Counted from the first letter of the stretch, positions 12,571-64,000 are shown. The stretch is 64,000 nt of DNA from Candidatus Spongiisociaceae bacterium (GCA_965262915.1 OZ253564.1:1165597-1229596); one strand, 5' to 3'. Translations and numbers: made by a program. The notes: generated by a model from the letters alone, not told the origin.

Positions 12571-12677
12571 CTAGGAGGGTGGTGCAAAACCCCTTCACGG
12601 CGCGTCGACCGATGACATAATGCCTGTTCAGAGGAAGACGGGCCGTTGCTCCCCACCGTTTTAGACCACCCTTCTAG
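12571..12677. mobile_element. MITE family A, copy 1 (107 bp, TIR GGAGGGTGGT, TA flanks)
   Basis: Near-identical copies at 23971..24077 and, inverted, at 50550..50655. Terminal and internal (ACGGCCCGTC/GACGGGCCGT) inverted repeats. Confidence 0.85.
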
Positions 12678-21490: not shown

Positions 21491-22651
21491 TTCCTTAGTT
21501 TCTTTGCCATATGCTGCTAGAATATGCAGGTCAGTAGCAGTCAGTAGTGGGAGCAGCGTATGGAGAAGCAGCGGGGTCGTAAAGCAGTGGTTATCGAGCT
21601 GGATGAAGAGGAACGCCAGACGCTCGAGCGGTGGATACGGCGGCGTAGCACCGCACAAGGGTTAGCGATGCGGTCTCGTATCGTGCTGGGAGCGGCCGAA
21701 GGCCGCACCAATGTGGACATCGCAGCGGAGGTGGGCTGCAGCGGGGTTACGGTCTCGAAGTGGCGGAACCGTTTCGCCCGGCGCCGTCTCGACGGCCTCT
21801 ACGACAATCCCCGCCCCGGGCCGCCCCGCCGCATCGACGACGCCAAGGTAGAAGAAGTGGTGGTCAAGACCCTCGAGGAAACACCGAGAGACGCGACGCA
21901 CTGGTCGACCCGGTCCATGGCGAGGGCCGTCGGCCTGTCCCAGTCGTCGATCCTAAGAATATGGCGGGCGTTCGGTCTCAAGCCGCACCGGACCGAGCAT
22001 TTCAAGATATCTCCCGACCCCCAGTTCGTGGAAAAGGTCCGCGACCTGGCGGGTTTGTACCTGAACCCGCCCGACGCGGCGGTGGTGCTGTGTGTGGACC
22101 ACAAATCCCAGATACAGGCCCTCGACCGCACCGCGCCGATCCTGCCCCTGTTGCCCGGAACCCCCCAGCGGCGCACCCACGACTACCGCCGGTACGGCAC
22201 CACCAACCTCCACGCCGCGCTCGACACGGCCACCGGCCGGGTCATCACCTCCATGACACGACGCAACCGCACCCAAGAATTCCAGACGTTCCTAAACCTC
22301 ATCAACCGCGAAGTCCCACCAGAACTCGACGTCCATGTCGTGTTGGACAACGCGTCGCCCCACAAAACAGAGCCCATAGGGCGCTGGCTGCAACGCCATC
22401 CACGGTTCACGTTCCATTTCACACCCACCTACGCGTCGTGGATGAACCTCGTCGAGCGATGGTTCTCCGAACTCACCACCAAACAGATACGCCGAGGCAC
22501 CCACCGATCCGTAGCCGAACTCACCGACGCCATCAACCAATGGACCCAACACTGGAACCAAAACCCCAAACCCTTCATCTGGCACAAAACCGCCGACCAA
22601 ATCTTCGACAACCTCACCAACTATCTACAACGAATCCCCGAATCAGGACAC
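21482..22651 (+). mobile_element. IS630-family insertion sequence (1170 bp) with TA target duplication
   Basis: Perfect 12-bp TIRs GTGTCCTGATTC (21482-21493) and GAATCAGGACAC (22640-22651), flanked by TA at 21480-81 and 22652-53. Confidence 0.9.
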
Positions 22652-22654
22652 TAG
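21560..22654 (+). CDS. IS630-family transposase (HTH plus DDE domain)
   Basis: 364 aa. N-terminal HTH regions and DDE-type core (VVLCVDHKSQ..., VLDNASPHK..., ASWMNLVERWF). The stop TAG uses the flanking TA. Confidence 0.92.
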   Translation: MEKQRGRKAVVIELDEEERQTLERWIRRRSTAQGLAMRSRIVLGAAEGRTNVDIAAEVGCSGVTVSKWRNRFARRRLDGLYDNPRPGPPRRIDDAKVEEVVVKTLEETPRDATHWSTRSMARAVGLSQSSILRIWRAFGLKPHRTEHFKISPDPQFVEKVRDLAGLYLNPPDAAVVLCVDHKSQIQALDRTAPILPLLPGTPQRRTHDYRRYGTTNLHAALDTATGRVITSMTRRNRTQEFQTFLNLINREVPPELDVHVVLDNASPHKTEPIGRWLQRHPRFTFHFTPTYASWMNLVERWFSELTTKQIRRGTHRSVAELTDAINQWTQHWNQNPKPFIWHKTADQIFDNLTNYLQRIPESGH

Positions 22655-25481: not shown

Positions 25482-25624
25482 TCGTCACCGGCAGATAGCT
25501 TTCGCCATCCAGTCACGGGTACCGGGTGGGCCGCCGACCACGGGCTAATCCCGAGGATCGGCGGCTCTAGGATAGTGGAGGCCCGGGCCGGGCCCGCTAG
25601 GCGAAGCTCCACTCCTGCTGGCGG

Positions 25625-25855
25625 ATGTGGTTCACCCGCAGCAGGCCCTGGTCGATGCCCGCATGGTTGATCCGGCTGGACATGTACCTGTTCTGGCCCT
25701 GGTACAACCACACCGCCGGAGGCGCCAACATCCGGCCGTTGCCCGAGGTACAGGCTCTCAAGCAATGGGCCGACGACCTGCTGGCAAGCGGGCGAAGCTG
25801 GCGCGTTGCGTACCGGGCGGCCTTCGAATACCCCACCAGGGACCGGCTGCCGTGA
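25625..25855 (+). pseudogene. Fragment of an alpha/beta hydrolase paralog
   Basis: AWLIRLDMYLFWPWYNHT...WRVAYRAAFEYP aligns with RAWAIRRDMLLFWPWYRRT...WQLYHASFRYEP of 36164..37731. No catalytic N-terminal part is present. Confidence 0.45.
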
Positions 25856-26042
25856 CTGACCCGACCCACCCTGCCGGCCACATCGGCAGTCGATCCGCTC
25901 CGGGTCTATTCCGGGGAGACGGCACGGATCAGCGATGTCATCACGGTGGCCGAATCGGAAGGCTACGTTACGCCGGAAGCCTCCCGCAGAACGGCCGAGC
26001 TGTACAGGGCCTTCTCCGATCGTCAAGACGGATAGGAGCACG

Positions 26043-27033
26043 ATGTCTGAACCCGGAACCGCTCTCGGAGTCTCCATATGCGGGGTCGAGAACCTGGAGC
26101 ACGCGCTGGGGTACTACCGCGACCTGGTCGGCTTGGATGTCGTTGATCGGGAGCCCTGGTCCGGGAAGCAGTTCGAGGATCACTGGCACCTGCCTGCGGG
26201 GAGTTCAGCCCGGACCGCCCTGCTTGGCTTCGGTGACAGCCCCGTGGGTCGGGTGCTGCTGCTCGAGTTCGACGCTTCCCACCGCCTTCGGGTGCGACCG
26301 CACAGCGAGCGGGCCTTCTACGGGCTGTTCAACCTCAACTTCTACTGCTATGACATCCCGGCAGCGGTCGTGGAACTGAAGGAACGTGGGTACAACGTGT
26401 GGAGCGAGCCTCACCTACGACGTCTCCGCCCAGGCCGGCCAGCCCACCGAGGTCCTGAACGACGGACCCGACTGTGTGATCATCAACCTGGTGCAGCCCG
26501 CCGGGGGAGGAGGCACCGCGGTTGGTGAGATGAAGGCCTACCTCGACACGCACGGTGTCACCTCCCGCGGCTTCACCGAGGTGGCGACCTCGTCGCACAG
26601 AGTCAAGGAACGCGAGGCGGCTCTCGCGTTCCATCGAGGGGTGTTGGGCCAGGAGGTGTTCATCGACGCCACCTTGGGGTCGGAGACCAGCAACCAGCTG
26701 TGGGGCCTGCCCGACGAGGCCCGCACCAGGGCAACCTTCATGAGGGACGCCCATCCGTTCGGCAAGGTCGTGTTGAGCCAACCTCTCAACTACCGGCCCC
26801 CGGACTTCGTCCCCCGAGCGGTGGCCCCCAACATCGGCTACCTGGCGATGGTGTTCCCTGTCTCCGATCTCGCCGCTGCACTGGACGCGGCCGATCTGGA
26901 ACCCGATGGAGTCATCAACCCTCCGACCGATCTGATCATCCCAGGAGTCGGGAGCCGGACCGTGGCCGTCATTTGCGCCCCCGGAAGCGGCGCCCGCTAC
27001 GAACTCATGGAGGATGACGTTCCTCGACCCTAG
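26043..27033 (+). pseudogene. Two-module VOC family protein with a frameshift near 26412
   Basis: The N-terminal part ends ...KERGYNVWSEP. Continuation (L)TYDVSAQAGQPTEV... is in another frame (ORF 26386..27033). The paralog 52069 reads RFWSRPTTYEMSEAVGSPTEV uninterrupted. Confidence 0.6.
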
Positions 27034-27112
27034 ATGACGTTCCTCGATCCTATAGGTCCGCTCGGTAGTTACCCGGCTAGTTCATGGCTATGCGTATGCG
27101 GACCTACCCCTG

Positions 27113-27233
27113 GGAGGGTGCTGAAAAACATAGGAGCATCCCCGGACAAGGGGGTTCGCTCGGTAGCGCACAACTCTCTTACTAGGTGGTTTGCCACTAG
27201 CGAACCCCGCAAGGTTCGTTCTTCGCACCCTCC
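27113..27233. mobile_element. MITE family B, copy 1 (121 bp, TIR GGAGGGTGCTGAAAAAC)
   Basis: Terminal inverted repeats GGAGGGTGCTGAAAAAC / GTTCTTCGCACCCTCC. Internal inverted repeat GGGGTTCGCT/AGCGAACCCC. TA on the right flank. Confidence 0.6.
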
Positions 27234-27257
27234 TAGATCGCTACATGTACACAGGCT

Positions 27258-27548
27258 CTACGCGACTGTCGACAGACGTTCTACTTCAATGTGATGAGCG
27301 TTCCTTAGAGCCCGGGCGAGGTCGTAGGCTGCCTGGAGTCGGTACCACGTGTGGGCACCTCCACCGAATGCCTTGTCAAGCCGGATCGCCATCTCGGGCG
27401 AGATGCCCGAACGGCCATTGACCACATCCGATAGTTGTTTACGACTGACACCTAGCTTCTTCGCCGCTTCCGTCACGCTGAGCCCCAGCGGCTCCAAGCA
27501 GTCGTGACGGACGGAGAATCCAGGATGGGGCGGATCTTTCATCGGCAT
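27258..27548 (-). CDS. higA: HigA-family antitoxin (XRE-type HTH)
   Basis: [42 protein letters not shown] is the canonical HigA HTH. Lies directly downstream of higB. Confidence 0.85.
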
Positions 27549-27562
27549 TGTCGCGTCCTCCT

Positions 27563-27841
27563 TCAGTGGTAGTCGACCAAGTCCACTTCAGTCGCATGTC
27601 CCCCCTCGAACCGAAACACGATGCGCCAACCGCCGGACACGCTTACGGCCCAGTACCCGGCAAGGTCCCCTTTCAGCGGATGGAGGTGGAAGCCCGGCAG
27701 ATCCATGCTCCTGACAGCGGTTGCCTCATCGAGACGCGCCAAGATCCGCTCGATCTTGGCAACGTACGCTGGCGGTATGCGACGCCGATCCCCCTTTTCG
27801 TAGAGAAGCTTCAGGCCCTTGTGGCGGAATCGGATGATCAC
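27563..27841 (-). CDS. higB: HigB toxin (RelE/ParE superfamily, killer protein)
   Basis: [18 protein letters not shown]...[27 protein letters not shown] is a typical HigB. Confidence 0.85.
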
Positions 27842-27856
27842 TCAGGTAGTGTAACC

Positions 27857-27875
27857 TGTCACCTCTCAGGTGACA
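27857..27875. promoter_or_regulatory. Palindromic candidate operator of the higBA promoter
   Basis: TGTCACCT-CTC-AGGTGACA, a perfect 8-bp inverted repeat 16 nt upstream of the higB start, next to a TACACT -10-like hexamer. Confidence 0.5.
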
Positions 27876-28247
27876 ATACTGTCGTTGTGACTCAGCCTGT
27901 CTACCGGAAGGGTTGGCGTGTGGCCTGTGGCGTGGATCCGCCCCAGCACAGCCCACACGTTCCGTATGGCCAACGGATCGCCATCTCGGTCGGGTAGCCT
28001 CACATCTGAACCCTGTATCCGAATTCCGTCCCGGCGCCTGCCCACCAGAGCATGGTCTTAGGGAGTCACGGACGGGGGCGGCTTTCGTTTCACATCAGGG
28101 CAGCTTCCCGGGCACCAGAGACATAGGGGGAATACTGGGGGCTCCCCGATCTGCCCCTTCAGTCGGGCAGAGGCGCTCAGCGAACTGTTGGTGGAGCTGG
28201 CAGCAGGCAGGGCAACGCGCAGGTACGTTTCCTCTCGCGGTTGATGC

Positions 28248-29252
28248 TCAGACCGGAGGTGGTGGAGGTGTTAGCGGGGTGTAATCGGCCGCCAGCAGCG
28301 CCTTTCCGGACCGGCTCCGTAGAGCGGCCGCCACGCCCACCAGGGTTATGGTGCCCCCGCCGACATGGGTAAGGGTCACGGCTTCGCCTAGGAAGAACCA
28401 CGCCATGGCCGCTGCCAGGAAGGGGAGCGAAAGGTTCATCAGCGGCGGTACGTTGGCCGGGACCCAGCGGAGGCTCCAGGTAAGGAGGATGGCACCGATG
28501 CCGCCCGGCAGGACCACCACGCCAAGTACCTGGAGCATGTCCGGGCCGGTCACATCCCAGATGTCCTGACGGGTGGCGAGACAGAACAATGAAACGAACA
28601 GAGCGCTGACGAGGAGCATGCCCATCGTCAACGGAATGGTCTGCATGGTTCCCCGGGCCAGCTTCACGGTCACGAACTGCAGCGACCAGGAAACGACGGA
28701 CAGCGCCCCCAGGGCGATGCCGAGTGGGCTTCCGTCCGGCCCCGTCGAGCCGCCGAGAATCACCACCGAGGACCCGAGGATCGCCACCAAGGTCCACAGA
28801 CGGAAACGCATTCCGGGACGCTCCCCGAACAGAGGGATCGCCCACAGAGCGATGAAGACCGGATTGAGCATCGTCAGCAACGACACGTCGGCCACAGAGG
28901 TGAACTTGACCGCAGTCATGAACATCGTGGTCGAGGCGGCGTGGAACAGGCCGGCCAGAGCAGGAATCTTCCACTCGCGGCCTCGCGGTAGGGCGAGGTC
29001 GAAGCGCCCGGCGAGCGCAACCGCGGCGAAGGTAACCACGACCCCGATCCAGGACCTCCAGAACGAGAAAACCGGGCCGGTTGTGGAAGACGCCTGCACG
29101 AAGACCGGAGCGGTGCTGAAGGCCACCACCGATGTGCCGATCAGGATGAGAGGCCTGCGAGAGCCGAGGTTCCGCAGCTCCTTGATGGCCGCCGGGGGAT
29201 TCAACAAGCTTCTCGTACGAGCGCTGCTGGACGGGTGATCGGTCTCAGCCAC
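28248..29252 (-). CDS. EamA/DMT-family transporter
   Basis: 334 aa, about 10 hydrophobic segments in two EamA-like halves. Confidence 0.75.
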   Translation of the reverse strand: MAETDHPSSSARTRSLLNPPAAIKELRNLGSRRPLILIGTSVVAFSTAPVFVQASSTTGPVFSFWRSWIGVVVTFAAVALAGRFDLALPRGREWKIPALAGLFHAASTTMFMTAVKFTSVADVSLLTMLNPVFIALWAIPLFGERPGMRFRLWTLVAILGSSVVILGGSTGPDGSPLGIALGALSVVSWSLQFVTVKLARGTMQTIPLTMGMLLVSALFVSLFCLATRQDIWDVTGPDMLQVLGVVVLPGGIGAILLTWSLRWVPANVPPLMNLSLPFLAAAMAWFFLGEAVTLTHVGGGTITLVGVAAALRSRSGKALLAADYTPLTPPPPPV

Positions 29253-29423
29253 CGAGGCTCACGATTATCCAGGTTGGCGTCACTCGTTCCTTCGCCGTTC
29301 CCTAGCCGTCCGGCCGTGAGTGCCAGGTGGTTCATCAGGTGCCGGGACCAAGGCAAGGCATGGGTATACGAGTAATCCAGCATCTGTTCCCGTGTTGGAG
29401 CACACCGGTCCCGGATCGCCCGC

Positions 29424-30379
29424 TCAGAGGAACTGCCGGATCTCGAAGCGCTCCTCGTTGGGACCGGCCAGGATCGCGATCCTGTATCGATCGGATCCCA
29501 CCACGACTTCGGCGGGACCGGCGAGGATCTCTTGGGGACTCGCTCGGCCGACGACCGCGTCCAAGTCCTCCACATCGTGGGTGTAGAGAGAGATGCCGAG
29601 GTTACGCGGATGCATCCGGCCGGCCAGCCGAGGCCCGGTGCCTTCGTAGAAGTGGACCAGCAGGTACTTGCCGCTCGGGTCCGGTGGGGCGTTGAAGACG
29701 AGGAAGTGCATGGGTGTCCGCGCGGAGCCCCGACTAGCTCATTGGCGACCTCGAGCAGGTCGTCGGCCACATCGGCGGCACTGCGGACGTTCATCCCCAG
29801 TACCTCCCCGTAGAACCGCCTGCTGCGATCCGGGTCGTCACAAATCACCGAGACTGTTGCGATCTCGCTGTAGCGGGCGCCGGGCGGCTGCACCCGGTGG
29901 GAGCTGGCGGGGTGGTTGACCACCACCATGAGCAGGGACGGAACCCCGTCCGGGCCGGTGAAGAGGAGTTCCTCGGTCTCGGTGGGCCCGATCACGTAGT
30001 GGATGGGTCGCGATCTAGGCGGGAATCCGGCCGCAGTCATCTCGGCGATGGCTTCATCCAGATCGTGGTTCACGTAGAAATCGATGGCCTTCGGGCCGAC
30101 ATCCACCGCCGAGTCCGGGCCGTCGAAGTCGTCTCGGACCCGTCGCGTGGCGGCGGGCTCATGTTCCACCAGCCTCAGTTGCCCGCTCGGGTATCCCTGG
30201 TAGGAGAGGTGAGTCACCTGCGCTGAGACGCTCCCGTTGAGTTCCCAAAGATCGAGGAGATCAGGGCTCGCTTCCCACTCGGCCTCGATACGGAGTCCGA
30301 CCACATCCCGGAACAGGCGCAGGGCATCCTCGGTGTCGGTCACACCGATAGTCACGATTCGTAGCGGCCCAACGGACAT
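29424..30379 (-). pseudogene. Two-module VOC family protein with a frameshift near 29712
   Basis: The N-terminal 220 aa are good (MSVGPLRIVTIGVTDTEDALRLFRDVVGL...). After ...VGAPRG the frame becomes Ser/Thr/Arg noise. The true continuation MHFLVFNAPPDPSGKYLLVHFYEG... is ORF 29424..29711. Confidence 0.6.
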
Positions 30380-30409
30380 CCCGGACCTTCCCAGAGAGCG
30401 CGACCTATC

Positions 30410-31430
30410 TTATTGTCGGGGATCTCCGAGGATCGCGCTGCGCAGTTCGGTCCGGGCGGTCCGAACATCATCCGGGGTGAGGCCGAACGCTTCCGGCATG
30501 TGCGAGTAGAAGTTCCCGCAGTTGACCGGAACCACCTCTTCCACCTCGCCGATGGCGTCGAGATCCGCCCGTACCCGGTCGGGCGTACTGACCAGAACGA
30601 AGTCGCGTACCAGGTCGTCGGGCAGCAGCCGGCCGGCTTCTGTCCAGAGTTCCCTCTCGACGAGAACGACGAACTCGTTCCTGAACTCCTCTCCGGCTGC
30701 GTCGGCGAGGCGGGCCCATGTACCAAGCGCGCGACATGGCGATCGTGAGATCGGCACGGACCCTTAGGAGGGCTTCCTCCTCGTCCCGGTGGACCGACAC
30801 CACCATCCCGGTGCTCAGGTGGAACGGGGCGGCCGCATCCCGGGCCCCGGCAACGATGGACACGCGGTTGCGCATGACGCGGCGAGCCGTCATGAGGTGC
30901 ATGACCAGCCCGTCGGTGGCTGTAGCCGCTCACTGAACCGTGCGAGGGCCTTGCGCACCGGTCACCACGGGTACCCGGCTCCTATCGAGGCCCAACCCGG
31001 TAGAGGCGGCCCGGTAGTGCTCAGTGGTCATCTCGACCGGCTCGCCGGCTGGTCCCCGCAACACCCCGAGGACACACTCGGTGAAGTTGCGCAGGCGTCC
31101 GAGCGATGGCCGGTATCCGACGCCGAGGGCATGTTCGTTGGTTGTGGGTGTGCCGATCCCCAGCCCGAGCGTGAAGGTGCGTCCGAACCCGGCGATGCCG
31201 GCGGTGGCGAGGGCGGTCTGCAGGGGTGATCGGGTAGGGAGGGCCACGCCTATGCCGAGCGATACGTGGTCGGTGGCCGCAACCGCCAGAGCTGCGTCCA
31301 CGAAGCCGTCCCGCCCAGGGATGTCGGCCGAAAGTATGCTGCTCACCCCAGCTTTCTCGGCGCGGGCACAGTCCTCGTACCAGTCACGGGATGTTTCTGA
31401 CAGGGCTCTCGAATAGCCGACGGATGCCAT
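30410..31430 (-). pseudogene. LLM-class oxidoreductase paralog with an in-frame TGA (30930-32) and a frameshift near 30750
   Basis: Aligns along its length with 61807..62820. GPRTVQ-stop-AATATDG aligns with GPRMTRLAAEETDG. A later frame switch joins ORFs 30468..30902 and 30410..30757. Confidence 0.65.
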
Positions 31431-31473
31431 GGATACCCTCGATGTCGTCGGGGTTAGAGTCAGCCCGGCCAGC

Positions 31474-31543
31474 CTAGTGGTATGTCTGTGAAATGGCGTC
31501 GATGGCAAGCAGAGCACGGTAGGTTGTTTTGCAGACAGGGCAC
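31474..31543. repeat. Inverted-repeat element, family C, short diverged copy
   Basis: CTAGTGGTATGTCTGTGAAA ... GTTTTGCAGACAGGGCAC. The right arm abuts the AAGGAGG RBS of the VOC gene at 31555. Confidence 0.4.
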
Positions 31544-31554
31544 AAGGAGGGACG

Positions 31555-32481
31555 TTGATCTCACCCATATCGGTTGCAACGGTCGGAGTCACCGACCTCG
31601 AGGTCTCTGTCCACTTCTACCGGTCTCTCCTGGAATGGGAAGTTGTAGCCACAGGAGAGGTGGGAGGCCCTGATCTCGAGGCCCTGTGGCGTATGTCGCC
31701 GGGTCTGAGCGGACGGGCCACGGTAGTCGGCGCTCCGGGTCTGGAACTGGGGCGGGTTCGCCTCGTGGAATGGGACCGGCCCGGCGAGCTGGTTCGGGAT
31801 CCCGCCCGCAACCAGGACTTCGGCCACTACGCGCTGAACTTCCGCGTCGAGGACTTGCAGGACGTGTGGGAAGGGCTGGAGGACATAGGCGGTAGCGCTC
31901 GGTCGAGGCCTAACACGTGGGTGGTGGCCGAAGGCATACTCGCCCACGACTCGCTGTGCTACGACCCCGACGGCATCACCTGCGACGTGTTCGAGCTTCC
32001 CGACGAGGGCCCGCTCGGCCCGCTGGGTGATCGTGCCTCCAGCGAGCTGCAGACGATGGCCATCCGCCCCCGTGACATCGCTGCCTCGGCCGCCTTCTAT
32101 ACCGGGCTGGGCTACGAGACATGGTACGACCAGAAGACCGACGGGATCGAGGGATTCCTCCACCTGCCGGAGGGCACCACCCTCCACAACGTCAACTTCC
32201 ACATGCCTTCGCAAAGCCGCAACGGACGGGTCGAGTTGGCCGCTTACCTGGGCTTTCCGGGCGTCCCGACTTCGCATCGAGCCGTCCCGCCCAACATCGG
32301 GATCATGTCGATCACCTTCGAGAGCGACGACTTCGACCGGGACGCGGAACTGGCCGAGGAACTCGGAGCCACGATGGTCGCCCCGTCGCGCCAGGTCGAG
32401 GTCGGTCCCTACGGCGCCACCCGTGTAGCTACCTACCTGGGTCCGGACGGCGAGGCCATCGAACTGGTCGACATCGGATGA
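31555..32481 (+). CDS. Two-module VOC family protein (intact)
   Basis: 308 aa. TTG start after AAGGAGGG. ISPISVATVGVTDLEVSVHFYRSLL... plus a second module. Confidence 0.8.
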   Translation: MISPISVATVGVTDLEVSVHFYRSLLEWEVVATGEVGGPDLEALWRMSPGLSGRATVVGAPGLELGRVRLVEWDRPGELVRDPARNQDFGHYALNFRVEDLQDVWEGLEDIGGSARSRPNTWVVAEGILAHDSLCYDPDGITCDVFELPDEGPLGPLGDRASSELQTMAIRPRDIAASAAFYTGLGYETWYDQKTDGIEGFLHLPEGTTLHNVNFHMPSQSRNGRVELAAYLGFPGVPTSHRAVPPNIGIMSITFESDDFDRDAELAEELGATMVAPSRQVEVGPYGATRVATYLGPDGEAIELVDIG

Positions 32482-33050
32482 GCATCCCGGGCGTGCCCTT
32501 CGAGGAGATGGACCCGGCGATGCGCCGCCGGGCGGAGGTGGCAGCCGAGCTGACCGGTGACATACGTTTCATCCGGGCCATAGCGGCAGTTCCTCATATG
32601 GCCGACTTCTACTTCGGCAACTTCTACGAGCATGTGTTCTTCGGCGGCGACGTGCCGATCGTGACCAAGGAGTTGGTCCGCCTGCGCCTCTCGAACCTGC
32701 ACGGCTGCGCCTTCTGAAACCACACCAATCCCGTCTCGGCGAGACGGCAGGGAGTAACCGAAGAGCAGATCGCAGCAGTGGCCGGCGACATCTGGTCGGG
32801 TCCGTTCACCGAGGCGGAGAAGGCGGCGCTGGCCACCGTGCTTTCCAACGCAGTACAGGACGGGGTGGTTGACGAGGAACTGGCGACCGAACTCCGCCGT
32901 CACTACCCCGACGGGCAGATCATGGAGCTAGCGATGGCGATCGCCATACTGGTCGGGATGGCCCGCCTGCTGTTCGCATTCGATCTCGCCGACCGCGAGT
33001 TGGCATGTCCCGTCGGGCGCCTCTCCGATAATCGAAGCATAGGTGACTGA
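32478..33050 (+). CDS. AhpD/carboxymuconolactone decarboxylase-like protein with an in-frame TGA at the second Cys of the CxxC motif (candidate selenoprotein, otherwise pseudogene)
   Basis: ATGA overlap with the VOC stop. ...LRLSNLHGCAF[TGA 32715-17]NHTNP... continues in the same frame as ORF 32778..33050 (CMD-like C-terminal half). Combined length 190 codons fits the family. Confidence 0.6.
32731..32747 (+). other. Hairpin 13 nt downstream of the in-frame TGA (candidate bacterial SECIS)
   Basis: CCGTCTC-GGC-GAGACGG, a perfect 7-bp stem with a G-rich apical loop. Confidence 0.35.
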
Positions 33051-33068
33051 GGTGTTCCTCTGGTCCGA

Positions 33069-34079
33069 TCAATGGAGTTGGGTGTAGCCGGGTACTTTTT
33101 CGTAGGGACTGTCCAGATAGACCTTTGCCTCGGGCGCGCCACTGAAACGACCGTGGCTCCACCGTACCTCTACATGGCCATCCACGCGGATAGCCGTACC
33201 CGAATACTTGTCGGTTAGCTCGGACCACCACCTGATCATTGGCTGCCCAGCGTTGAGGTCCGGGCGCACGTCTAAGGATCGGAAGGTGTAGCGGCGCCGG
33301 AAGTCCCATGGAGTGTCAACTCGGTAGCGCATCGGAAGCTTCGTAGACGCAGCACCCAAGATGAAGTAGGGTGCCGACTGCAGCCTCAGTAGCCGCCACA
33401 GAGTCTCCTCCCTGACCTTCTTACGTTTACCCAAGGCTTTTTGCCACCGCGCAGCAGAGGTCCGCGAAACGGCGATGCAAAACCGCTGGTACGGATCCAT
33501 GAGGGTCTCCGGCCAGTGTCGCTTGAACTCCTCTTTCAATCGAACGCGATCCTGCTTCGTCAGATCACCGACTGATCCTGGTAGATTCGCAGTACCCAAA
33601 TAACTCCGGCACGCTCGGTAGAGATCCTGGTACTCGGCCGGGGCCACCTCGGAGTACCAATTCACCGGTGGCCCGTGGCGTGCGGCGAGCAACCGGACGA
33701 AGAGGTGAGAAGGTGATGCGTTATACAAGACCTTCGACATGTATTTGCAGCTCACCAGGTAGACATAGTCCACCCGGAGATCGGCAGGTACCTGCTCGTA
33801 ACCCGGGGCCTTGTGACTCCCCTTCCATTCCACGCGGAGCGGTTTTCGGTTGCGGAGGCCTTCGGACGAAGAAGCGAACATTTCGCCGTTGTTCCAAGCA
33901 CTGCTGAACAGCCGCCCGTGCTTCCCCGCTTCTCTGGCTCGTGCTAGACGATCAAAGTTCTCAGCGGTTACGTTCAGGATCTCAGCCGGACCGGTGAGCA
34001 GTGCTGTGTCCAGGGACTCGACCCCGAGCATGCCCAACCCTGTAACGATCTCGGTCAGTTCAGTCCGGAGGCTGGGCAT
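33069..34079 (-). CDS. Putative type II restriction endonuclease
   Basis: 336 aa, 40 nt downstream of the methyltransferase. Visibly lower GC. Possible PD...(S/E)xK-like segment PADLRVDYVYLVSCK. No other recognisable domain. Confidence 0.45.
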   Translation of the reverse strand: MPSLRTELTEIVTGLGMLGVESLDTALLTGPAEILNVTAENFDRLARAREAGKHGRLFSSAWNNGEMFASSSEGLRNRKPLRVEWKGSHKAPGYEQVPADLRVDYVYLVSCKYMSKVLYNASPSHLFVRLLAARHGPPVNWYSEVAPAEYQDLYRACRSYLGTANLPGSVGDLTKQDRVRLKEEFKRHWPETLMDPYQRFCIAVSRTSAARWQKALGKRKKVREETLWRLLRLQSAPYFILGAASTKLPMRYRVDTPWDFRRRYTFRSLDVRPDLNAGQPMIRWWSELTDKYSGTAIRVDGHVEVRWSHGRFSGAPEAKVYLDSPYEKVPGYTQLH

Positions 34080-34119
34080 CGATGCTGGACTGTCTCAATC
34101 TCCGAAGGTCACGCGTCAC

Positions 34120-35094
34120 TTAGGGCCGCTGGCCAGCGAGACCTATCTCTTGACTGGTGCCCCCGGAGTCATCGAGATTGGCGATACGGGCTCTGGCTAG
34201 CTTCACGTAGTCGGGATCGATGTCATAACCAACGGCGCGGCGGTTGGCCGCCTTGGCCGCCACCAGGGTAGTTCCCGAGCCCATGAACGGATCTAGGACC
34301 AGGTCTCGCTCATAGGTGTAGAGCTGGATAAGGCGCGCCGGTAGCTCAACCGGGAATGGTGCCGGATGGCCGATCCTGCTGGCGTGGGCGGGGGGGATAT
34401 CCCAGATGTCGATCGTTGCCTCCATGAACTCGTCGCGGCCGATGGTCGACTCGTACGGCATCTCGTCGGCTCTACGCTGGGCAGCAGTACGGGCTCGGTT
34501 GAAGCGGCCCTTTCCGGCCACGATGATGCGTTCGGTAACGTCTCGCAGAACAGGGTTGGCCGGGCTGCGCCATGATCCCCATGCACATGAGCCGCCCGCG
34601 GCCTTGGCCTTTCTCCAGATGATCTCGCCGCGCAGGAGCAGCCCGAGTTGGTCTTGGAGTATGCCGATCACATCCGCGCTCAAGCTACGGTATGGCTTGC
34701 GGCCGAGGTTGGCGACGTTAATGGCCATCCGACCGCCTGGTTCGAGCACCCGCACGCACTCCCGGAACACGCCGCTCAGCAGCGCCAAGTATTCCACATA
34801 GGATTCGGGCACCTGCCGACCTGCTACTGCCTGCTCGTACACCTTCCCTACGAAGTAGGGCGGTGAGGTAACTACGAGGGCGACGCAGTTGTCGGGCAGC
34901 GCAGCCATCTCCCGACTGTCACCGTGGATCGGTCGAGGCTCGTCGAAACCCTCGGCGACCTTGACGCGATCGTCGCTCGAGAGTTCCGGTGGAGGGAAAC
35001 GGGCGTAGAACGCAGACGCGTCGTGGCCCTCGCGGCGGCCCGATCCGAAACTAGAGGTAGCTGTACTCCGGCGCGTTTGCCGTGCATGATCCAC
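34120..35094 (-). CDS. Beta-class DNA methyltransferase (N4-cytosine/N6-adenine; the SPPY motif favours m4C)
   Basis: Motif IV TSPPY precedes motif I DPFMGSGTT. GTG start after AAGGAGGAGG. Confidence 0.88.
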   Translation of the reverse strand: MDHARQTRRSTATSSFGSGRREGHDASAFYARFPPPELSSDDRVKVAEGFDEPRPIHGDSREMAALPDNCVALVVTSPPYFVGKVYEQAVAGRQVPESYVEYLALLSGVFRECVRVLEPGGRMAINVANLGRKPYRSLSADVIGILQDQLGLLLRGEIIWRKAKAAGGSCAWGSWRSPANPVLRDVTERIIVAGKGRFNRARTAAQRRADEMPYESTIGRDEFMEATIDIWDIPPAHASRIGHPAPFPVELPARLIQLYTYERDLVLDPFMGSGTTLVAAKAANRRAVGYDIDPDYVKLARARIANLDDSGGTSQEIGLAGQRP

Positions 35095-39739: not shown

Positions 39740-42112
39740 TCAACTACGGCGCGCCTGGGAGGTGCGTGTCGAGGCAGCGGTCTCATGGAGCGCCGGCGCA
39801 ACCTTTCTGAATAGCCGCCAAGCGCCGTCGACATCGAGGAGTCGGGCGCCTGCAGACTCGTACGAGAGCGTCTTGTCGAGCACCCAGTCCCATTTGTCTA
39901 TCTCCCGATTCTCGATCACCGCAGCCAACCCGGCGGTCGTAGGAGGTGGGTTCTCTAGGAACTGACCGATCACCTCTGCTACCTCGTCGGGGCCGGTCCC
40001 GCATATCCGGATGGCGGGGCCTTCGACGCCCACTTTGATTCCTGCCTGATGCAGGGCGATCATCGCGGTATACAGGGCGCGATCGCCGGTCCATGGAAAC
40101 AGCAGGACATCCCCGCCATCCCGGACCACGGTTCGCTTGCCCAGCCGGAATTGCTTGAACGCGGCCCGACCCTCGGCGAGCAGGTCCCTCGCGCCGGCGT
40201 CGAGCCATGTCGGGGTTTCGGTCGACGCGTAGACGGCCAGCATCTCCGCCCGAACCTCATTCGACACCGCGGGACCATGGCTGCCGGAGAAGAGGGGGGC
40301 GCCGCCAGTGGATTGTTCGAGCTCGACCACCCGGGCCGGTTTGTCGATGCCTGTCACCTTCCAGCGCTTCCCGGCGAAGATCATCAGCATCCCTTCCCGG
40401 AGGGGCTGGTAGATGGGGATCGTACCCAGAGTCCTACCACCGGTCACGACCCGCCATTCGTCGGCAGTGTGGAACGCGACATAGAAGCGGTAGTGGTTGA
40501 CGTGGCGTTCGCCGACCACCCCGTGCAGCAGCTGCCCGTCGGAGGATTGGATCAGAAGATCGTGGGACGCCATGGCTCGGAGCAACCGGACGAACCGAGC
40601 CTGGTCGACGAGGTGGAAGGGACCCGGCCCGCACAGGGCGCGATACAGGTCGGCCGCCCTCGCTCCGCCGTGCTGGGCGATGGTCGACATGATCTGCTGG
40701 ATCAGCGTCGAGTAATTGAATCCGGGATCGTCGGCGGATTCGAGCCACCTCTGGAGCATGAGGCGCACCATGGCGGTCGTCTGCACGACCCCGCAGCGCA
40801 GCCGGTCGACCGGGAGGGACCGCTCGTCGAGGGATGGTTCGCTGATGTAGAGGCGCAGCAGGGCCGGGTCGTCGCGGCGGCCCGATCTCCCCAGCCGCTG
40901 CCAGAGGGATGCGACCGATGGCGGCGGGCCTATCTGAGCCACGCTCGTTACCGAGCCGATGTCGATTCCCAGCTCGAGCGTGGACGTGCTCACCGCGGTC
41001 GCCGGTCGGGTTCGGTCCTTCATCTGCGCTTCGGCCGCCTCGCGCAGTTCCTTGGACAGGTTGCCGTGATGCGGCCAGAACTCGTTGGGGACCCGCTCCC
41101 GGTCACTTCGACGGGCGAGCAGGTCGGCGTAGGTCTCCACGTGATTGCGCGTGTTGGCGAACACCAGGTTGTCCTGGCCGCGCAGATGCCTGAACAGGTG
41201 CTCGGCTATCTCTGTCGCGTCCCCGTTCACCGTCTCTTCGACAGCTACTTCGCGGCCGGCCCGCTCGGCGTTTTCGGCCTGGTGGGGTGATACCGGTGGC
41301 GGGGTGGCCACGTACCCGCGCAGCTGCAGCATCAACCCCCGGCCGTCCGACTTCGACTCAACTATCAGGACCTGCTCCGGGTCGGTCGGGCGGAGAAACG
41401 CGGTGGCCTGATTCATGTCGCCGAGGGTTGCCGACAGCCCGATACGGGGTGGTCGTAGGCGGACCGCCAGCTCGACACGGTTCATCAGCGACTGCAGTTG
41501 GACTCCCCGTTGCGTGGCCAGGAAGGAGTGGAGCTCGTCGATCACGATGTAGCGCAACCCGACGAACAGCCTCGGCACGAGGGAGCCCCGGTTGACGAAG
41601 GTCGACTCCAAAGACTCGGGAGTTATGAGCAGTACACCGGACGGTCGGGCTATCAGGCTCTGCTTCGCCGCCGCCGAGACGTCCCCGTGCCAGCGATGCA
41701 CGGGGACATCCACCCGTTCGCAGATCCGTTCCAGGCGTTGATACTGATCGTTGATCAGGGCCTTCAGCGGCGAAAGGTACAGAGCCTGCACCCCGACGGA
41801 GGGTCCGGTCGCCGGTTCCGCCCACGGGTCGTAGGCCGTCCACGGATCTCGTTCCCCCGATGTCGGCTGGTCGGTGGCGCCGGCAAGGGTCGACAGGATA
41901 GGGAGGAAGGCGGCTTCGGTCTTTCCGGAGGCGGTCGCCGCGGCGATGATCAAATCACGGTCACCGTCAATGATCGGACCGATGGCGCGCTCCTGGGCGT
42001 CGTGCAGCGAGGTCCACCCCTGGTCGTATATCCAGCGCTGTATCCGAGGATGCAGCCGGGTGAACGCCGACGACGGGGCAGCTTCAGAGACGGAAGTGGG
42101 TGAGATGGTCAT
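39740..42112 (-). CDS. Lhr-like DEAD/DEAH-box helicase (third gene of the TerB-ATPase-helicase cassette; Shango SngC-like)
   Basis: Motif I AATASGKTEAAFLP, motif II VIDELHSF, motif III SATLG, long C-terminal extension. Start uncertain (ATG 42112 or GTG 42157); both overlap the upstream gene end. Confidence 0.85.
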   Translation of the reverse strand: MTISPTSVSEAAPSSAFTRLHPRIQRWIYDQGWTSLHDAQERAIGPIIDGDRDLIIAAATASGKTEAAFLPILSTLAGATDQPTSGERDPWTAYDPWAEPATGPSVGVQALYLSPLKALINDQYQRLERICERVDVPVHRWHGDVSAAAKQSLIARPSGVLLITPESLESTFVNRGSLVPRLFVGLRYIVIDELHSFLATQRGVQLQSLMNRVELAVRLRPPRIGLSATLGDMNQATAFLRPTDPEQVLIVESKSDGRGLMLQLRGYVATPPPVSPHQAENAERAGREVAVEETVNGDATEIAEHLFRHLRGQDNLVFANTRNHVETYADLLARRSDRERVPNEFWPHHGNLSKELREAAEAQMKDRTRPATAVSTSTLELGIDIGSVTSVAQIGPPPSVASLWQRLGRSGRRDDPALLRLYISEPSLDERSLPVDRLRCGVVQTTAMVRLMLQRWLESADDPGFNYSTLIQQIMSTIAQHGGARAADLYRALCGPGPFHLVDQARFVRLLRAMASHDLLIQSSDGQLLHGVVGERHVNHYRFYVAFHTADEWRVVTGGRTLGTIPIYQPLREGMLMIFAGKRWKVTGIDKPARVVELEQSTGGAPLFSGSHGPAVSNEVRAEMLAVYASTETPTWLDAGARDLLAEGRAAFKQFRLGKRTVVRDGGDVLLFPWTGDRALYTAMIALHQAGIKVGVEGPAIRICGTGPDEVAEVIGQFLENPPPTTAGLAAVIENREIDKWDWVLDKTLSYESAGARLLDVDGAWRLFRKVAPALHETAASTRTSQARRS

Positions 42113-43439
42113 CGTCGGGTGCTGGTCTCGGGATGGACGGCGGGGCGCCGTTGCCACTCTTGAGCGGTGCGAGGTCCGGATTGGTCTCCGCTTCGATCTC
42201 GACCCGGTCGATCAGATCGGACCAGTTCACGCCGGGGTTCTGGGCGAGCACCGAGAGGAGGTTCACGAACTCCTTGATGGTGGTCCGCGGTGTGCGGAAG
42301 TAGGCGTCACCCACACGCGACGCGCAATGGTCCATGAAGGCGGGCAAGGCTTCGTCGGGTACGAGGTAGGCGTCCGGATCGCCGCTCGCGAACACGTGCC
42401 GGAGTTTGGTGAGCAGCACGTAAATATCCTCGGGGGACAGGTTGGCGAGGCGCAATACCGGACCGGAGAAGTCAACGAGCCCCTTACGGGCGAAAGTGTT
42501 CTCGGCAAGACGTGACTGCAGGGCCGGGTACGAGTAGAGGCCGCGCCGGGTGTCTAACAGCATGTCCGGAGTGCCGCCGAACACGAACCCGAGCCCGGCA
42601 GCCGAACCCTGCAGGCAGTCGTTGAGGATGCGAAGCACCTGTTCGTAGTTGGAGTTGCGGGCCCTGGTATGCGACATCTTGTACAGATTCACCATCTCGT
42701 CCAGGCAGACGAGGAGGCCTGAGAACCCGGCCAGACGGACGAACCGCGCGAACAGCTTGAGATGGTCGTAGAAGCTCCGGTCGTCGATGATGGTGCGCAC
42801 TCCGAGCGCTTGCCGTGAGTCGGTGCGGGTCGAGAACTCGCCGCGTAGCCAGCGCACCACATCGGAGCGCAGTTGTTCGTTGCCGTTGTCATGGGCGCGC
42901 CAGTAGGCGGCGATTACTTCGGCGAAGTCGTATCCGCCGACCATCTCCTGGAGATCGGCAAGCCGTTCACGGATTACCGTCTCCGGGCTGATGTCTCGGG
43001 AGCGGGCGGCGCTCAGACCGGCCGTGATGAACCGTTCCACCACCGACGGCATCGCGCCGCCCTCCGGCTTCGCTCGCGTCGACAGGTTGCGCATCAGCTC
43101 GGCGTACAGACCGCGCGCCTGACCGCCGGTCGCGTAGAGGCGGCGTTCGGGTGACAGGTCGGCGTGGACGGTGACGAGCTTTCGTTCGAGCGCGATTGAA
43201 CGGACCAGGTTCAGGAAGAAGGACTTTCCGGCCCCGTACTCGCCGATCACGAGACGGATCGCCGAACCGCTGTCGGCGATCCGGTCGATGTCAGCGACCA
43301 CAGCGGCCACTTCGTCGGCGCGTCCGACCTGGATGTGTTGCTGGCCGACCCGTGGTACGACGCCGGCCCGCAAGGACTGGATGATCGCGTCGCGGTCCCG
43401 CGGGCGGATACGGCCGGTGGGACGGGTTAGGGATGTCAA
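42084..43439 (-). CDS. P-loop ATPase of the DUF2791/BREX BrxC-D-like type (Shango SngB-like)
   Basis: Walker A GEYGAGKSFF and Walker B-like LLVCLDEM. 4-nt overlap with the TerB gene stop. Confidence 0.75.
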   Translation of the reverse strand: MTSLTRPTGRIRPRDRDAIIQSLRAGVVPRVGQQHIQVGRADEVAAVVADIDRIADSGSAIRLVIGEYGAGKSFFLNLVRSIALERKLVTVHADLSPERRLYATGGQARGLYAELMRNLSTRAKPEGGAMPSVVERFITAGLSAARSRDISPETVIRERLADLQEMVGGYDFAEVIAAYWRAHDNGNEQLRSDVVRWLRGEFSTRTDSRQALGVRTIIDDRSFYDHLKLFARFVRLAGFSGLLVCLDEMVNLYKMSHTRARNSNYEQVLRILNDCLQGSAAGLGFVFGGTPDMLLDTRRGLYSYPALQSRLAENTFARKGLVDFSGPVLRLANLSPEDIYVLLTKLRHVFASGDPDAYLVPDEALPAFMDHCASRVGDAYFRTPRTTIKEFVNLLSVLAQNPGVNWSDLIDRVEIEAETNPDLAPLKSGNGAPPSIPRPAPDDDHLTHFRL

Positions 43440-45685
43440 GTCAGTTCCTCCACAGCGTAGGCATTGAGTACCACAGGGTTGTCACCCTCTACAAGAGGTT
43501 CGCCGCAGGCTTCCATTGCGGCTTCGTTGATCACGTCGATAGCGCCGTCGAGGAACGGCAATCCGAACGAATCGGCCATCTCCTCGGCGAAGCGGCGCTC
43601 CCACTCCGATCGGGAGGCGAGGGCCGCAAGGAGCCGCGAATGCGGCCCGTCAAGACCCTCGATCATCGATCTGGGTTCCGAGCCGGGCGTACGGGATTCC
43701 GTCTCCGGTGGTGGGTCGTCGTCTACGAAGATGTCGGTCAGCAGGTTCGACACACGGTCCGTCTCGGCCAGACGGGCTTGGATCTTTGCAGGGTCCAGGG
43801 CTACGGGACGGCGCCGCGCGGCAATCGTGCCGGGGTTGGGAAGTTCCCAACCAGTGTTGGGCGCCCCCTCTCGAACGGTGACCGGGCCGGTATCCCCCAG
43901 GTCGAGAGTATGGGCGCGGCTATACAGGTGGGATTCGTCGAGGCCCATATGTTCGAACAACCTTTCCAGGACGGCGATCTCTTTGTGATTGACGACCCCG
44001 TCGGCGGCTGCAAGCTCGATCAGAAGACTTCCGACTTTCGGCAGATCGTCGGGTTCCATCGCCTTTATCTTGCGTTTGATGCCGTACATACGGGGTTTTC
44101 GCACACCGAGCAATGCCAAGTGCGCTTGCAGCCTGGCCCGATCGGCGGTATCAAGCCCGGTGATCCCTTCCAATCGTTCAGCGAGAAACCGGTGTTCGAA
44201 GGAGTTGATCTTCCCGTCCGCTGCGGCCACTATCGCACTCAGATACACCAGCGACAGGGCGGCGCCGTACAAAGTGGGTTTCGCCCGCCCACCCTCGGGA
44301 AGCGAGAACAACACCGCATGCGTACCCGGACTTGGAGTAGGCGCACCGAAACGGACGTCGGGTTCGATTCCCACCTCGACGTTGGCGAGCATGGACGCCA
44401 GAGCAGAGGCGTCGGTCTTGGTGAGTTTCGAGGTGTGGCCGGGTGACCACATTTCCACCAGTTCATCGAGGAAAACCACCGCCCGCGGCCTACCGGCCAG
44501 TTGTTCCGATGTCCAGGCCCGGAGACCCTTGAGGATCGGACCACCGTGCTCGACAAGCAACACGTCGGGTAACAGCCCGACCGCGGCCGGGGTCCCGACC
44601 CAATCAGGGTGGCGCCCGATCAAGCGGCTGTAGGCATCGAGTTCATTGTCGCATTGCTTGGCCAACTCGTTCAGCTCGGTGATCAGCGCCGGTTCGAGCG
44701 TTACGTCAGGAATCCTGTCGAGGGTGATGAACACGCCTCCGTCGAATCCGGAGGATGTGGCCCGGTACGAGAGCCTGATCTTCCTCGCCGGTCGTGGCAC
44801 CCGGAGACCCGGTCCGAACCGCGCCCTGTAACGTATGCCGAACAGTTCGTCGAACTCGGCGGCAGCGCGCTTGGCCGGTGTTCGTAGCCGCCCCTCGGGA
44901 TGGTGCCGGAGGTAACTGAGGGCCCATTCGGCCGGGATGGCGGACCGTTCCGAAACATACTTGCCGATGCAGACTCGAACCGCGGCCGGTACGCCGAGCT
45001 TTGCGCGACCGGAATCCCATGGGACCGGTTGTGCGTCAGTGTTCACCGACAGCACGCCTTCCACGAAATCCAGCAGTTGACCCGCGCTCCCAGCGAATGA
45101 ATGCTCCTCGCGGTAGATGCCTAGGAGACGTTCGATCTCGGCCAGGATGATCGCGACCTCCGGAAGGTGGAGGTCGGCGCCAAGGTCGGCGAACAGACGC
45201 CGTTCGAGCCCGTAGAAGAACAAGAACACGTAACCGATGTAGGCGGACCTGTCCTGGCGACCCCCGGCCAGCCACTTGAGATAGGCGGCCCGAACGCGCG
45301 GGTTGGCTCGTCCGTACGACGGGTCGTGATGCATGGAAGCTCCGGTGCGATCCGCGCTTTTCCAGTTGACCGGAAGCCGAGGATCGATGAGGCTTGGCTC
45401 GGGTCCGCGTCCGTTCGCCGCCAGGGCGCCGTTGCCGATGTAGACCATCCCGCCTTCGATCGAACGGCCGGCCACGTCGATCTTCCCACCGGGTGGGACC
45501 CAGGTTGCCGGACCTCGCTTGGATCGCTTCCCTGACCACCGAAGCGGGCCGCTGTCCCACCAGTAAGGCGTCGGCGGGCCGCGCTTCGTGTTCCGTTCGG
45601 GACGGTTTGTCCCACGCTCGGGCCGGCTCACAACCCCCCTTTCAGGTACCGCCTGTCGGCTAGAGGGGAAGTGCCCGATCGGCAT
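43436..45685 (-). CDS. TerB-N / TerB / TerB-C domain protein (Shango SngA-like)
   Basis: N-terminal WVPPGGKIDVAGRSIEGGMVYIGNG...EPSLIDPRLPV (TerB-N-like). Central AIVAAADGKINSFEHRFL (TerB-like). C-terminal LDGPHSRLLAAL...FLDGAIDVINEAA (TerB-C-like). Start at ATG 45685 or 45706; the ORF-track start at 46087 overlaps vapBC and is rejected. Confidence 0.75.
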   Translation of the reverse strand: MPIGHFPSSRQAVPERGVVSRPERGTNRPERNTKRGPPTPYWWDSGPLRWSGKRSKRGPATWVPPGGKIDVAGRSIEGGMVYIGNGALAANGRGPEPSLIDPRLPVNWKSADRTGASMHHDPSYGRANPRVRAAYLKWLAGGRQDRSAYIGYVFLFFYGLERRLFADLGADLHLPEVAIILAEIERLLGIYREEHSFAGSAGQLLDFVEGVLSVNTDAQPVPWDSGRAKLGVPAAVRVCIGKYVSERSAIPAEWALSYLRHHPEGRLRTPAKRAAAEFDELFGIRYRARFGPGLRVPRPARKIRLSYRATSSGFDGGVFITLDRIPDVTLEPALITELNELAKQCDNELDAYSRLIGRHPDWVGTPAAVGLLPDVLLVEHGGPILKGLRAWTSEQLAGRPRAVVFLDELVEMWSPGHTSKLTKTDASALASMLANVEVGIEPDVRFGAPTPSPGTHAVLFSLPEGGRAKPTLYGAALSLVYLSAIVAAADGKINSFEHRFLAERLEGITGLDTADRARLQAHLALLGVRKPRMYGIKRKIKAMEPDDLPKVGSLLIELAAADGVVNHKEIAVLERLFEHMGLDESHLYSRAHTLDLGDTGPVTVREGAPNTGWELPNPGTIAARRRPVALDPAKIQARLAETDRVSNLLTDIFVDDDPPPETESRTPGSEPRSMIEGLDGPHSRLLAALASRSEWERRFAEEMADSFGLPFLDGAIDVINEAAMEACGEPLVEGDNPVVLNAYAVEELT

Positions 45686-45753
45686 GCCGCCGTGACAACC
45701 GACCATTATGGTACAAATCCGATGACTCTGAAGCCTTGGTGTATACTGAACCA

Positions 45754-45978
45754 ATGCGGCGTATACAGCTATACATGGACGATGACCTCGATGAAGCGCT
45801 ATCCGGCGAGGCGGCTCGTCTGGGCGTCTCCCGTTCGGAGCTCGTGCGAGACGCAGTGAGGGTCTCGCTACGCGGCTTTCTCGACGCTGATCGCGATGCG
45901 GTCGACGATCTGATCGGCTGGATCGACGTGGAGCCGGACGACGATATCGATTCGGTGGTCTACGGGCTCGAAGAGTGA
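45754..45978 (+). CDS. vapB: Ribbon-helix-helix (CopG/VapB-type) antitoxin
   Basis: MRRIQLYMDDDLDEALSGEAARLGVSRSELVRDAV is an RHH fold pattern. GTGA overlap with vapC. TATACT -10-like hexamer upstream. Confidence 0.75.
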   Translation: MRRIQLYMDDDLDEALSGEAARLGVSRSELVRDAVRVSLRGFLDADRDAVDDLIGWIDVEPDDDIDSVVYGLEE

Positions 45979-50549: not shown

Positions 50550-50655
50550 CTAGGAGGGTGGTCTAAACGGTGGGGAGCAACGGCCCGTCTTCCTCTGAAC
50601 TGGCATTATGTCATCGGTCGACGGGCCGTGAAGGGGTTTCACACCACCCTCCTAG
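50550..50655. mobile_element. MITE family A, copy 3 (inverted orientation, 106 bp)
   Basis: Reverse complement of 23971..24077 with one substitution and one 1-nt deletion. TA flanks. Confidence 0.9.
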
Positions 50656-50686
50656 GGCACGGGGTAGCCATCAGGTAGCCAGATCG

Positions 50687-62989: not shown

Positions 62990-64000
<1,011 letters not shown>

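Follow-up and report, generated by a model that had tools for sequence, protein, structure and literature searches.

A probable selenocysteine codon in the redox motif of an AhpD-like protein from a sponge-associated actinobacterium

A 64,000-nucleotide stretch of DNA from Candidatus Spongiisociaceae bacterium (GCA_965262915.1 OZ253564.1:1165597-1229596; here called the window, with positions counted from its first letter) contains a gene of the AhpD-like/carboxymuconolactone decarboxylase (CMD) family with a TGA codon in its reading frame. Comparison with related sequences indicates that this TGA, at 32715-17, is very probably (at a rough estimate, 0.9) the selenocysteine (Sec) codon of an AhpD-like redox protein in a sponge-associated actinobacterium. 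The TGA replaces a conserved redox Cys codon, is retained across orthologous loci, and is followed by an intact, constrained reading frame and by a hairpin with the properties of a bacterial selenocysteine insertion sequence (SECIS). The features concerned are as follows.

32478..33050, plus strand: putative selenoprotein gene of the AhpD-like/CMD family, 190 residues including Sec80, final stop at 33048-50; identified from translation, Pfam, PDB sequence matches and the model of an ortholog.
32706..32717, plus strand: predicted redox motif C77-A-F-U80, with the Cys codon TGC at 32706-08 and the proposed Sec codon TGA at 32715-17; identified from the conservation of Cys or TGA at the column.
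32731..32747, plus strand: candidate bacterial SECIS hairpin, stem 32731-37/32741-47 and loop GGC 32738-40; identified from folding, alignment and codon invariance.

The plus-strand frame opened by ATG 32478 contains only one TGA (32715-17) ahead of the stop at 33048-50. The open reading frame (ORF) pieces 32121..32717 and 32778..33050 share one frame, and the joined 190-residue product matched the Pfam CMD domain (PF02627) with an E-value of 2.9e-12 and a score of 46.8 bits (cutoff 23). A first-pass annotation, made from the sequence alone, had proposed that the two pieces constitute one AhpD/CMD protein of 190 codons, and the common frame and the domain match confirm this. The TGA stands in the context ...LSNLHGCAF[TGA]NHTNPVSARRQG, which at the protein level reads ...SNLHGCAF[TGA]NHTNPVSARR...

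A protein search found 76 homologs. Twenty-six of these were aligned, and 24 of them, homologs more distant than the TGA-bearing orthologs, had Cys at the column of the TGA (GCAFC). The TGA therefore falls at the second redox Cys of the C-x-x-C motif, where the first-pass annotation had placed it. The gene in loci L003, L004 and L005 was represented by neither a full-length nor a fragment call among the protein-search results, and conservation of the TGA was settled by scanning DNA and not called proteins. Eight other non-redundant orthologous loci (L002, L003, L004, L005 and L034-L037), with amino-acid identities of 45-82%, also have TGA at this column; the coding sequence of a further locus, L033, is identical to that of L004, and the pair was counted once. 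L003 (RHO1_bin_3), L004 (APA_bin_98) and L005 are metagenome-assembled genomes representing three different GTDB species, and all three combine the TGA at the column with the same hairpin and an unbroken frame beyond it. L005 is a Candidatus Spongiisociaceae, class Acidimicrobiia, and its locus lies on a 4.39-Mb contig. The five loci L033-L037 come from JGI metagenomes, L033 from the Aplysina aerophoba assembly MKWU, and in L034-L037 the TGA persists at a protein identity of just 54-60%. It is present also in L002, a 744-bp ENA contig with ~45% identity. An alignment with homologs had been proposed in the first-pass annotation as a check, and a recent private mutation had been named there as evidence that would count against Sec; the alignment returned Cys at the column in 24 of 26 homologs, and the TGA, being kept in eight other orthologous loci, is not private. 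All the refuting conditions listed there that could be put to the data spoke for Sec.

In L002 the gene caller split the gene into two adjoining products, one of 79 and one of 108 residues. Automatic callers treat such loci in this way, and the homologs of a second TGA-containing gene in the window (described below) are also called as fragments. These calls accord with a reading in which there are two small genes, one for a 79-residue protein ending at 32717 and the other for a 90-residue protein starting from GTG 32778. Such an arrangement is extremely unlikely. Every Cys homolog carries the two halves in one polypeptide, as a single CMD/AhpD domain, and in the model they make up one compact fold. 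Conservation at the protein level also extends across the 20 codons that separate the TGA from GTG 32778 (NxTNPVSARRxGVTEEQI).

Selection on the coding sequence was assessed by pairwise Nei-Gojobori estimates of nonsynonymous (dN) and synonymous (dS) divergence between the window and L003, L004, L005 and L034. The 110 codons after the TGA had a dN/dS of 0.12-0.23 at a dS of 0.6-1.4. This is indistinguishable from the dN/dS of 0.13-0.25 of the 79 codons before the TGA. No extra stops or frameshifts were present in the 110 downstream codons of any ortholog. By these estimates purifying selection acts on the frame downstream of the TGA, which is as constrained as the frame before it.

A hairpin, CCGTCTC-GGC-GAGACGG, starts 13 nt after the TGA and has a perfect 7-bp stem and a minimum free energy (MFE) of -9.4 kcal/mol. 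Published criteria for bacterial SECIS elements are a loop of 3-9 nt, a stem of 4-16 bp, a G in the first two loop positions, a UGA-to-loop distance of 16-37 nt and an MFE of <= -7.5 kcal/mol (PMC13188914). The hairpin agrees with all of these, having a 3-nt loop, 7 bp, G in the first loop position (followed by a second G), 20 nt from the UGA to the loop and the MFE given above, and the first-pass claim that it lies within the distance range of bacterial SECIS elements holds. Of the 747 TGA trinucleotides on the plus strand, just 5 (0.7%) are followed at SECIS spacing by a hairpin that has a perfect 7-bp stem and a loop beginning with G.

The nucleotide sequence of the hairpin is conserved to a degree that the encoded amino acids do not account for. 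Nine non-redundant sequences were compared at the 39 invariant-amino-acid codon columns with at least 4-fold degeneracy. All six hairpin codons (CCC GTC TCG GCG AGA CGG) were nucleotide-identical in the nine sequences, down to 54% protein identity, whereas all 33 columns outside the hairpin varied synonymously. A Fisher calculation for 6/6 hairpin versus 0/33 control columns gave ~3e-7. One of the six invariant codons is AGA, which in so G+C-rich a genome would be expected to be rare among Arg codons. The RNAalifold consensus was this same hairpin, paired in 10/10 aligned sequences. In L002 the hairpin reads CCGCCTC-GTT-GAGGCGG, where a compensatory U:A to C:G double change keeps the stem and the loop is GUU. 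The closest Cys forms, L041 and L043, have no conserved hairpin at this position. Taken as a comparison of sequences, these data indicate that the hairpin is constrained at the RNA level, beyond the requirement of the protein. The downstream MFE of Cys and Sec forms among distant CMD loci showed a modest, non-independent difference, which was not relied on.

The first-pass annotation had also pointed to a TGA at a CxxC Cys elsewhere in the window, at 60902. The corresponding features are as follows.

60407..61207, plus strand: second candidate selenoprotein gene, lipoprotein-type Trx/Redoxin fold with a W-U-P-A-C motif, TGA at 60902-04; start uncertain (GTG 60407 or ATG 60425).
60912..60937, plus strand: hairpin after the second TGA, candidate SECIS, loop 60923-26, 18 nt after the UGA, -11.8 kcal/mol.

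This second TGA is real, lies in a Pfam Redoxin/Thioredoxin domain (context LYLFWAEW[TGA]PACRR) and is conserved in many relatives. About 70 homolog clusters of the gene are fragments split at the same site, the full-length Cys form P0255 reads WAEWCPVC at the equivalent site, and two near-identical long contigs (L039 and L040) keep the TGA at the DNA level. The product has a lipoprotein signal (LAGC) and a Thr/Val-rich linker with VAETT(M/V) tandem repeats (~60700-60790). The hairpin after the TGA fits the loop-G rule just approximately. The gene resembles the Trx-like/thiol:disulfide interchange UxxC selenoproteins (PMC2398784, Table 2) in its W-U-x-x-C motif and Redoxin/Thioredoxin fold. 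It differs from them in that its product is a lipoprotein with a tandem-repeat linker and falls below every NCBIfam cutoff.

Genome-wide reassignment of TGA was considered and rejected: TGA is the main stop codon of this genome and terminates 19 of 29 Pfam-supported genes. A different possibility is that the UGA at 32715-17 is read through without Sec, a near-cognate or suppressor tRNA inserting Trp, Cys or Arg and the hairpin acting as a general stimulator. The lack of visible Sec machinery within the 64-kb window would fit such read-through, and an ortholog with Arg at the column (L001, below) shows that a standard amino acid can fill the position. Nevertheless, we regard it as very unlikely. 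The column is the redox Cys of a family with documented CxxU selenoproteins, the hairpin fits the SelB-type bacterial SECIS geometry including the loop G, and the second TGA, in an unrelated Trx-fold gene, is also exactly at a CxxC Cys. Because the TGA sits at the redox Cys in two families, decoding as Sec, not leaky termination, is indicated.

Several observations weigh against a Sec codon at 32715-17. The first is the state of the closest homolog. This protein, P0001 (86-88% identity), has Arg at the column, and its DNA, L001, reads CGA (7485-7487) with the hairpin intact and identical. Either the loss of Sec is tolerated or the L001 copy is decaying. The CGA looks like a recent replacement of Sec by Arg, unless it is an error of assembly; the name of the contig contains '7x', possibly a coverage label. 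Taken alone, the CGA could have pointed to decay from CGA to TGA in the window. Because TGA is shared by L003-L005, L033-L037 and L002, it is the ancestral state of this clade, and L001 has the derived one. A second point is that codons 1-79 of the window and L001 differ by 6 nonsynonymous changes and 1 synonymous change (dS 0.018). Decay of the window copy was considered, because at conserved sites it seemed to hold the derived state where it differs from L001, and was rejected when the changes, polarised with L003-L005, divided ~5:5 between the two lineages. Third, the residue beside the active site is altered in the window gene. The first-pass annotation had taken a His after the CxxC motif for a feature of the family, and this was incorrect: His-82 is a private R82H change, and the orthologs and Cys homologs have Arg. 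Fourth, gene decay does occur at this locus, in the adjacent gene.

30410..31454, minus strand: luciferase-like monooxygenase gene, disrupted by a TGA at 30932-30930 and a 1-nt insertion near 30717.

The TGA in the luciferase-like gene is private to the window; L001, L003, L004 and L005 all have TGG (Trp). The disrupted gene is either a pseudogene or the product of sequencing error. The L001 copy of this gene is without an internal segment of ~31 residues.

The evidence for the hairpin and for Sec decoding in the organism also has weaker elements. Covariation in the stem amounts to a single compensatory pair in one sequence, a level reached by 49 of 500 shuffles. The 91-nt region as a whole is not unusually stable (z -0.26), so that the folding signal is that of a local hairpin and not of global stability. 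A scan of the whole window against Rfam gathering thresholds gave no SECIS match at the hairpin, the only hit being an ALIL pseudoknot; as no SECIS family was returned at these thresholds, this null is uninformative. No selA, selB, selD or tRNA-Sec was detected in the 64-kb window by Pfam scans of ~40 ORFs or by tRNA and Rfam scans, and no tRNA of any kind turned up when the window and nine related loci were scanned. Indirect support for Sec decoding comes from the second conserved TGA in the window and from the sponge study of Slaby et al., who reported that SelA and SelB are enriched in A. aerophoba symbiont bins (PMC5649159). In favour, the Acidimicrobiia bin76 has SelA, SelB and SelD; against, for the Acidimicrobiia bin134 only SelD is listed, SelA and SelB not being annotated (PMC5649159, Table S4). 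Both bins are from the sponge whose metagenome holds L033, and it is bin134 whose G+C content matches that of the window.

The private TGG-to-TGA change and frameshift next door, the sense codon of L001 and the nonsynonymous excess in the N-terminal part relative to L001 could be taken to mean that 32715-17 is a true stop, leaving a pseudogene or only a 79-residue N-terminal fragment and making the hairpin incidental. This is very unlikely given the TGA in eight other non-redundant orthologous loci at 45-82% identity, the downstream codons free of stops and frameshifts with a dN/dS of 0.12-0.23, and a hairpin that is nucleotide-invariant beyond protein need. The TGA of the luciferase-like gene exemplifies a private, decaying TGA, and the TGA of the CMD gene looks nothing like it. 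We therefore retain the reading of 32715-17 as a Sec codon.

Divergence between the window and L001 is uneven. The dS is 0.018 for codons 1-79, 0.35 for codons 81-190 and 0.48-1.4 for flanking genes. Across window 25569..34078 and L001 1..8856 the nucleotide identity is a mosaic of 98%, then 89%, then 80%. This mosaic divergence suggests that recombination took place recently, its breakpoint lying within or close to the CMD gene. A repeat occurs in both sequences.

50550-50659 (plus strand), 23967-24077 (minus strand) and 12571-12677 (minus strand) in the window, and 2474-2592 in L001: ~110-nt imperfect palindromic repeat.

The repeat has terminal inverted repeats, CTAGGAGGGTGGT...ACCACCCTCCTAG, and an RNA fold of -55 kcal/mol, and resembles a miniature inverted-repeat transposable element or a repetitive extragenic palindrome. 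The L001 copy is located at the junction of the 98%-identical and 89%-identical blocks. A possible CMD paralog at window ~25830-26140, which gave a weak blastn match to L001 262-571, was rejected, the translations being without CMD-like sequence and the match compositional.

PDB sequence searches matched the protein to PA0269-type AhpD-like proteins with E-values of ~1e-12, and sequence and profile searches aligned GCAF[U] with the GCAYC, GCAFC and GCMYC motifs of PA0269-type AhpD-like proteins, Atu0492 and Bmp8. The AlphaFold model of the ortholog P0001 (86% identity; predicted local distance difference test score 88.7) is all-helical, and the motif lies where helix 78-90 begins. The best structural matches of this model, at TM scores of 0.67-0.70, are D. 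radiodurans AhpD, 'peroxidase-related' proteins and Bmp8. Glu-65, 12 residues before Cys-77, is nearly invariant. The protein is not a true 4-carboxymuconolactone decarboxylase (PcaC): the structures 4g9q, 2af7 and 2q0t match only at E-values of at least 0.6, and a redox CxxC/U motif is present instead. The curated NCBIfam cutoffs were not reached for either NF053654 (YciW-related (seleno)protein, the best match of all; 45.4 versus 310 bits) or TIGR01926 (peroxidase-related enzyme; 23.6 versus 81.8).

As the first-pass annotation stated, AhpD-like proteins are a documented prokaryotic selenoprotein family. The CxxU families 'AhpD-like' (COG2128) and 'CMD domain-containing/AhpD-like 2' (pfam02627) were described in the Sargasso Sea and Global Ocean Sampling surveys and are among the most abundant marine selenoproteins (PMC1088965, PMC2398784). 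They have been known since 2005, and recent reviews include several AhpD-related CxxU families. The window gene shares with the AhpD-like 2/CMD survey family the Pfam domain, the CxxU motif with Sec in place of the second Cys, a small G-containing hairpin past the UGA and a marine microbial origin; a Prx-like/AhpD-like gene neighbourhood was also seen in the surveys. It is distinguished by forming a separate ~190-residue clade of sponge-associated Acidimicrobiia, by an unusually invariant SECIS and by coupling to a VOC/glyoxalase gene. We conclude that the gene represents an uncurated clade of the known CxxU AhpD-like family.

The M. tuberculosis-type and PA0269-type AhpD proteins (PDB 2ijc/2o4d/7xw1 and 6k40) have the same all-helical fold (TM 0.55-0.70), a GCxxC motif at a helix N-terminus and a Glu 12 residues upstream. 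They differ from the window protein in having Cys at the position of the proposed Sec, and no adjacent gene for an AhpC partner is found here. The proton-relay His of M. tuberculosis AhpD is not conserved in this subfamily. Bmp8 debrominase (PDB 6ohi/6ohj) is similar in length (195 versus 190 residues), aligns over nearly its full length (E-values of 1e-6 to 5e-8; TM 0.68) and has a catalytic GCMYC motif that aligns with GCAFU, and both proteins are marine. However, the identity is 20-22%, and no bmp-type halogenase or biosynthetic cluster occurs among the neighbours examined.

Ten distant CMD genes (L009, L015, L020-L022, L024, L025, L027, L028 and L031) have Cxx-TGA followed by a predicted hairpin. 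These loci are from Deltaproteobacteria, Burkholderiales, Rhizobium/Hyphomicrobiaceae, Dehalococcoidia, Limnocylindria and Rhodospirillales. The distribution looks like recurrent exchange of Cys and Sec within the CMD family. The Cys-form loci L041 (P0004) and L043 (P0003) have a conserved cluster beside the microcompartment shell genes BMC and EutN/CcmL, with cupin, beta-lactamase-fold and short-chain dehydrogenase genes, a context unlike that of the Sec clade.

Immediately upstream of the selenoprotein gene is a gene whose stop overlaps its start.

31555..32481, plus strand: two-domain VOC/glyoxalase-family gene (Pfam Glyoxalase PF00903, E-value 9e-14), with an ATGA overlap at 32478-81.

The VOC-CMD gene pair and its start/stop overlap are kept in L001, L003, L004/L033 and L005, and the two genes appear to be translationally coupled. 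The order luciferase-like (divergent), VOC, CMD and 336-residue protein (convergent) is common to L001, L003 and L004. L005 shares the first three genes of this order; the downstream 336-residue gene was not detected there.

In the mechanism that we propose, the UGA at 32715-17 would be decoded as Sec to give a C77-x-x-U80 redox center in a 190-residue thiol/selenol oxidoreductase. With the ribosome paused at this codon, the intragenic hairpin at 32731-47 would act as a bacterial SECIS and recruit SelB-GTP-Sec-tRNA(Sec), and after Sec insertion translation would run on through the remaining 110 codons. In AhpD the nucleophilic attack is made by the second Cys of the motif, and placement of Sec at this position would therefore make chemical sense. 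By analogy, Sec80, at a helix N-terminus, would be the attacking nucleophile, Cys77 would resolve the selenenylsulfide formed at Sec80, and Glu-65 (E-x11-C) would be the conserved proton-relay Glu of the family. Since their genes are apparently co-translated, the VOC/glyoxalase and CMD products probably act in one detoxification or redox pathway. As to the substrate, it is conceivable, though improbable and speculative, that the VOC/glyoxalase and CxxU pair serves sponge symbionts as a detoxification module that depends on a selenol. It might, for instance, be a reductive dehalogenase of the Bmp8 type directed at the brominated metabolites of Aplysina-type sponges. This suggestion draws on the Bmp8-like length and fold, the aligned catalytic motif and the sponge-symbiont origin of several orthologs. 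If it were true, the module would be the bacterial analogue, with a CMD fold, of the deiodinases that are selenoenzymes.

The remaining annotated features of the window are as follows.

33069..35094, minus strand: 336-residue protein with no Pfam match and N6/N4 DNA methylase (PF01555), directly downstream of the selenoprotein gene.
39740..46087, minus strand: defence-island-like trio of a DEAD/DEAH helicase (805 residues), a BrxC/BrxD-family ATPase (451 residues, E-value 7.5e-154) and a TerB-N/TerB/TerB-C protein (883 residues).
62990..63999, plus strand: IS3-family transposase, with an ALIL frameshifting pseudoknot at 63268-63384 (Rfam RF01497, 104.8 bits).
21560..22654, plus strand: IS630-type DDE_3 transposase.

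The 336-residue protein and the methylase may constitute a restriction-modification pair. Mobile elements are frequent in the window.

Automatic annotation misses or splits the gene and its orthologs, as seen in the two fragments of L002 and in the ~70 fragment clusters of the gene at 60902. The finding confirms known biology and leaves existing knowledge unchanged in that CxxU AhpD-like proteins already count as one of the most abundant selenoprotein families in the sea. What it would add is a defined subfamily with a strikingly invariant SECIS, a clade covered by no curated NCBIfam model, in the selenoproteome of Acidimicrobiia associated with sponges. A Sec codon in this gene would imply selenium dependence of these symbionts.

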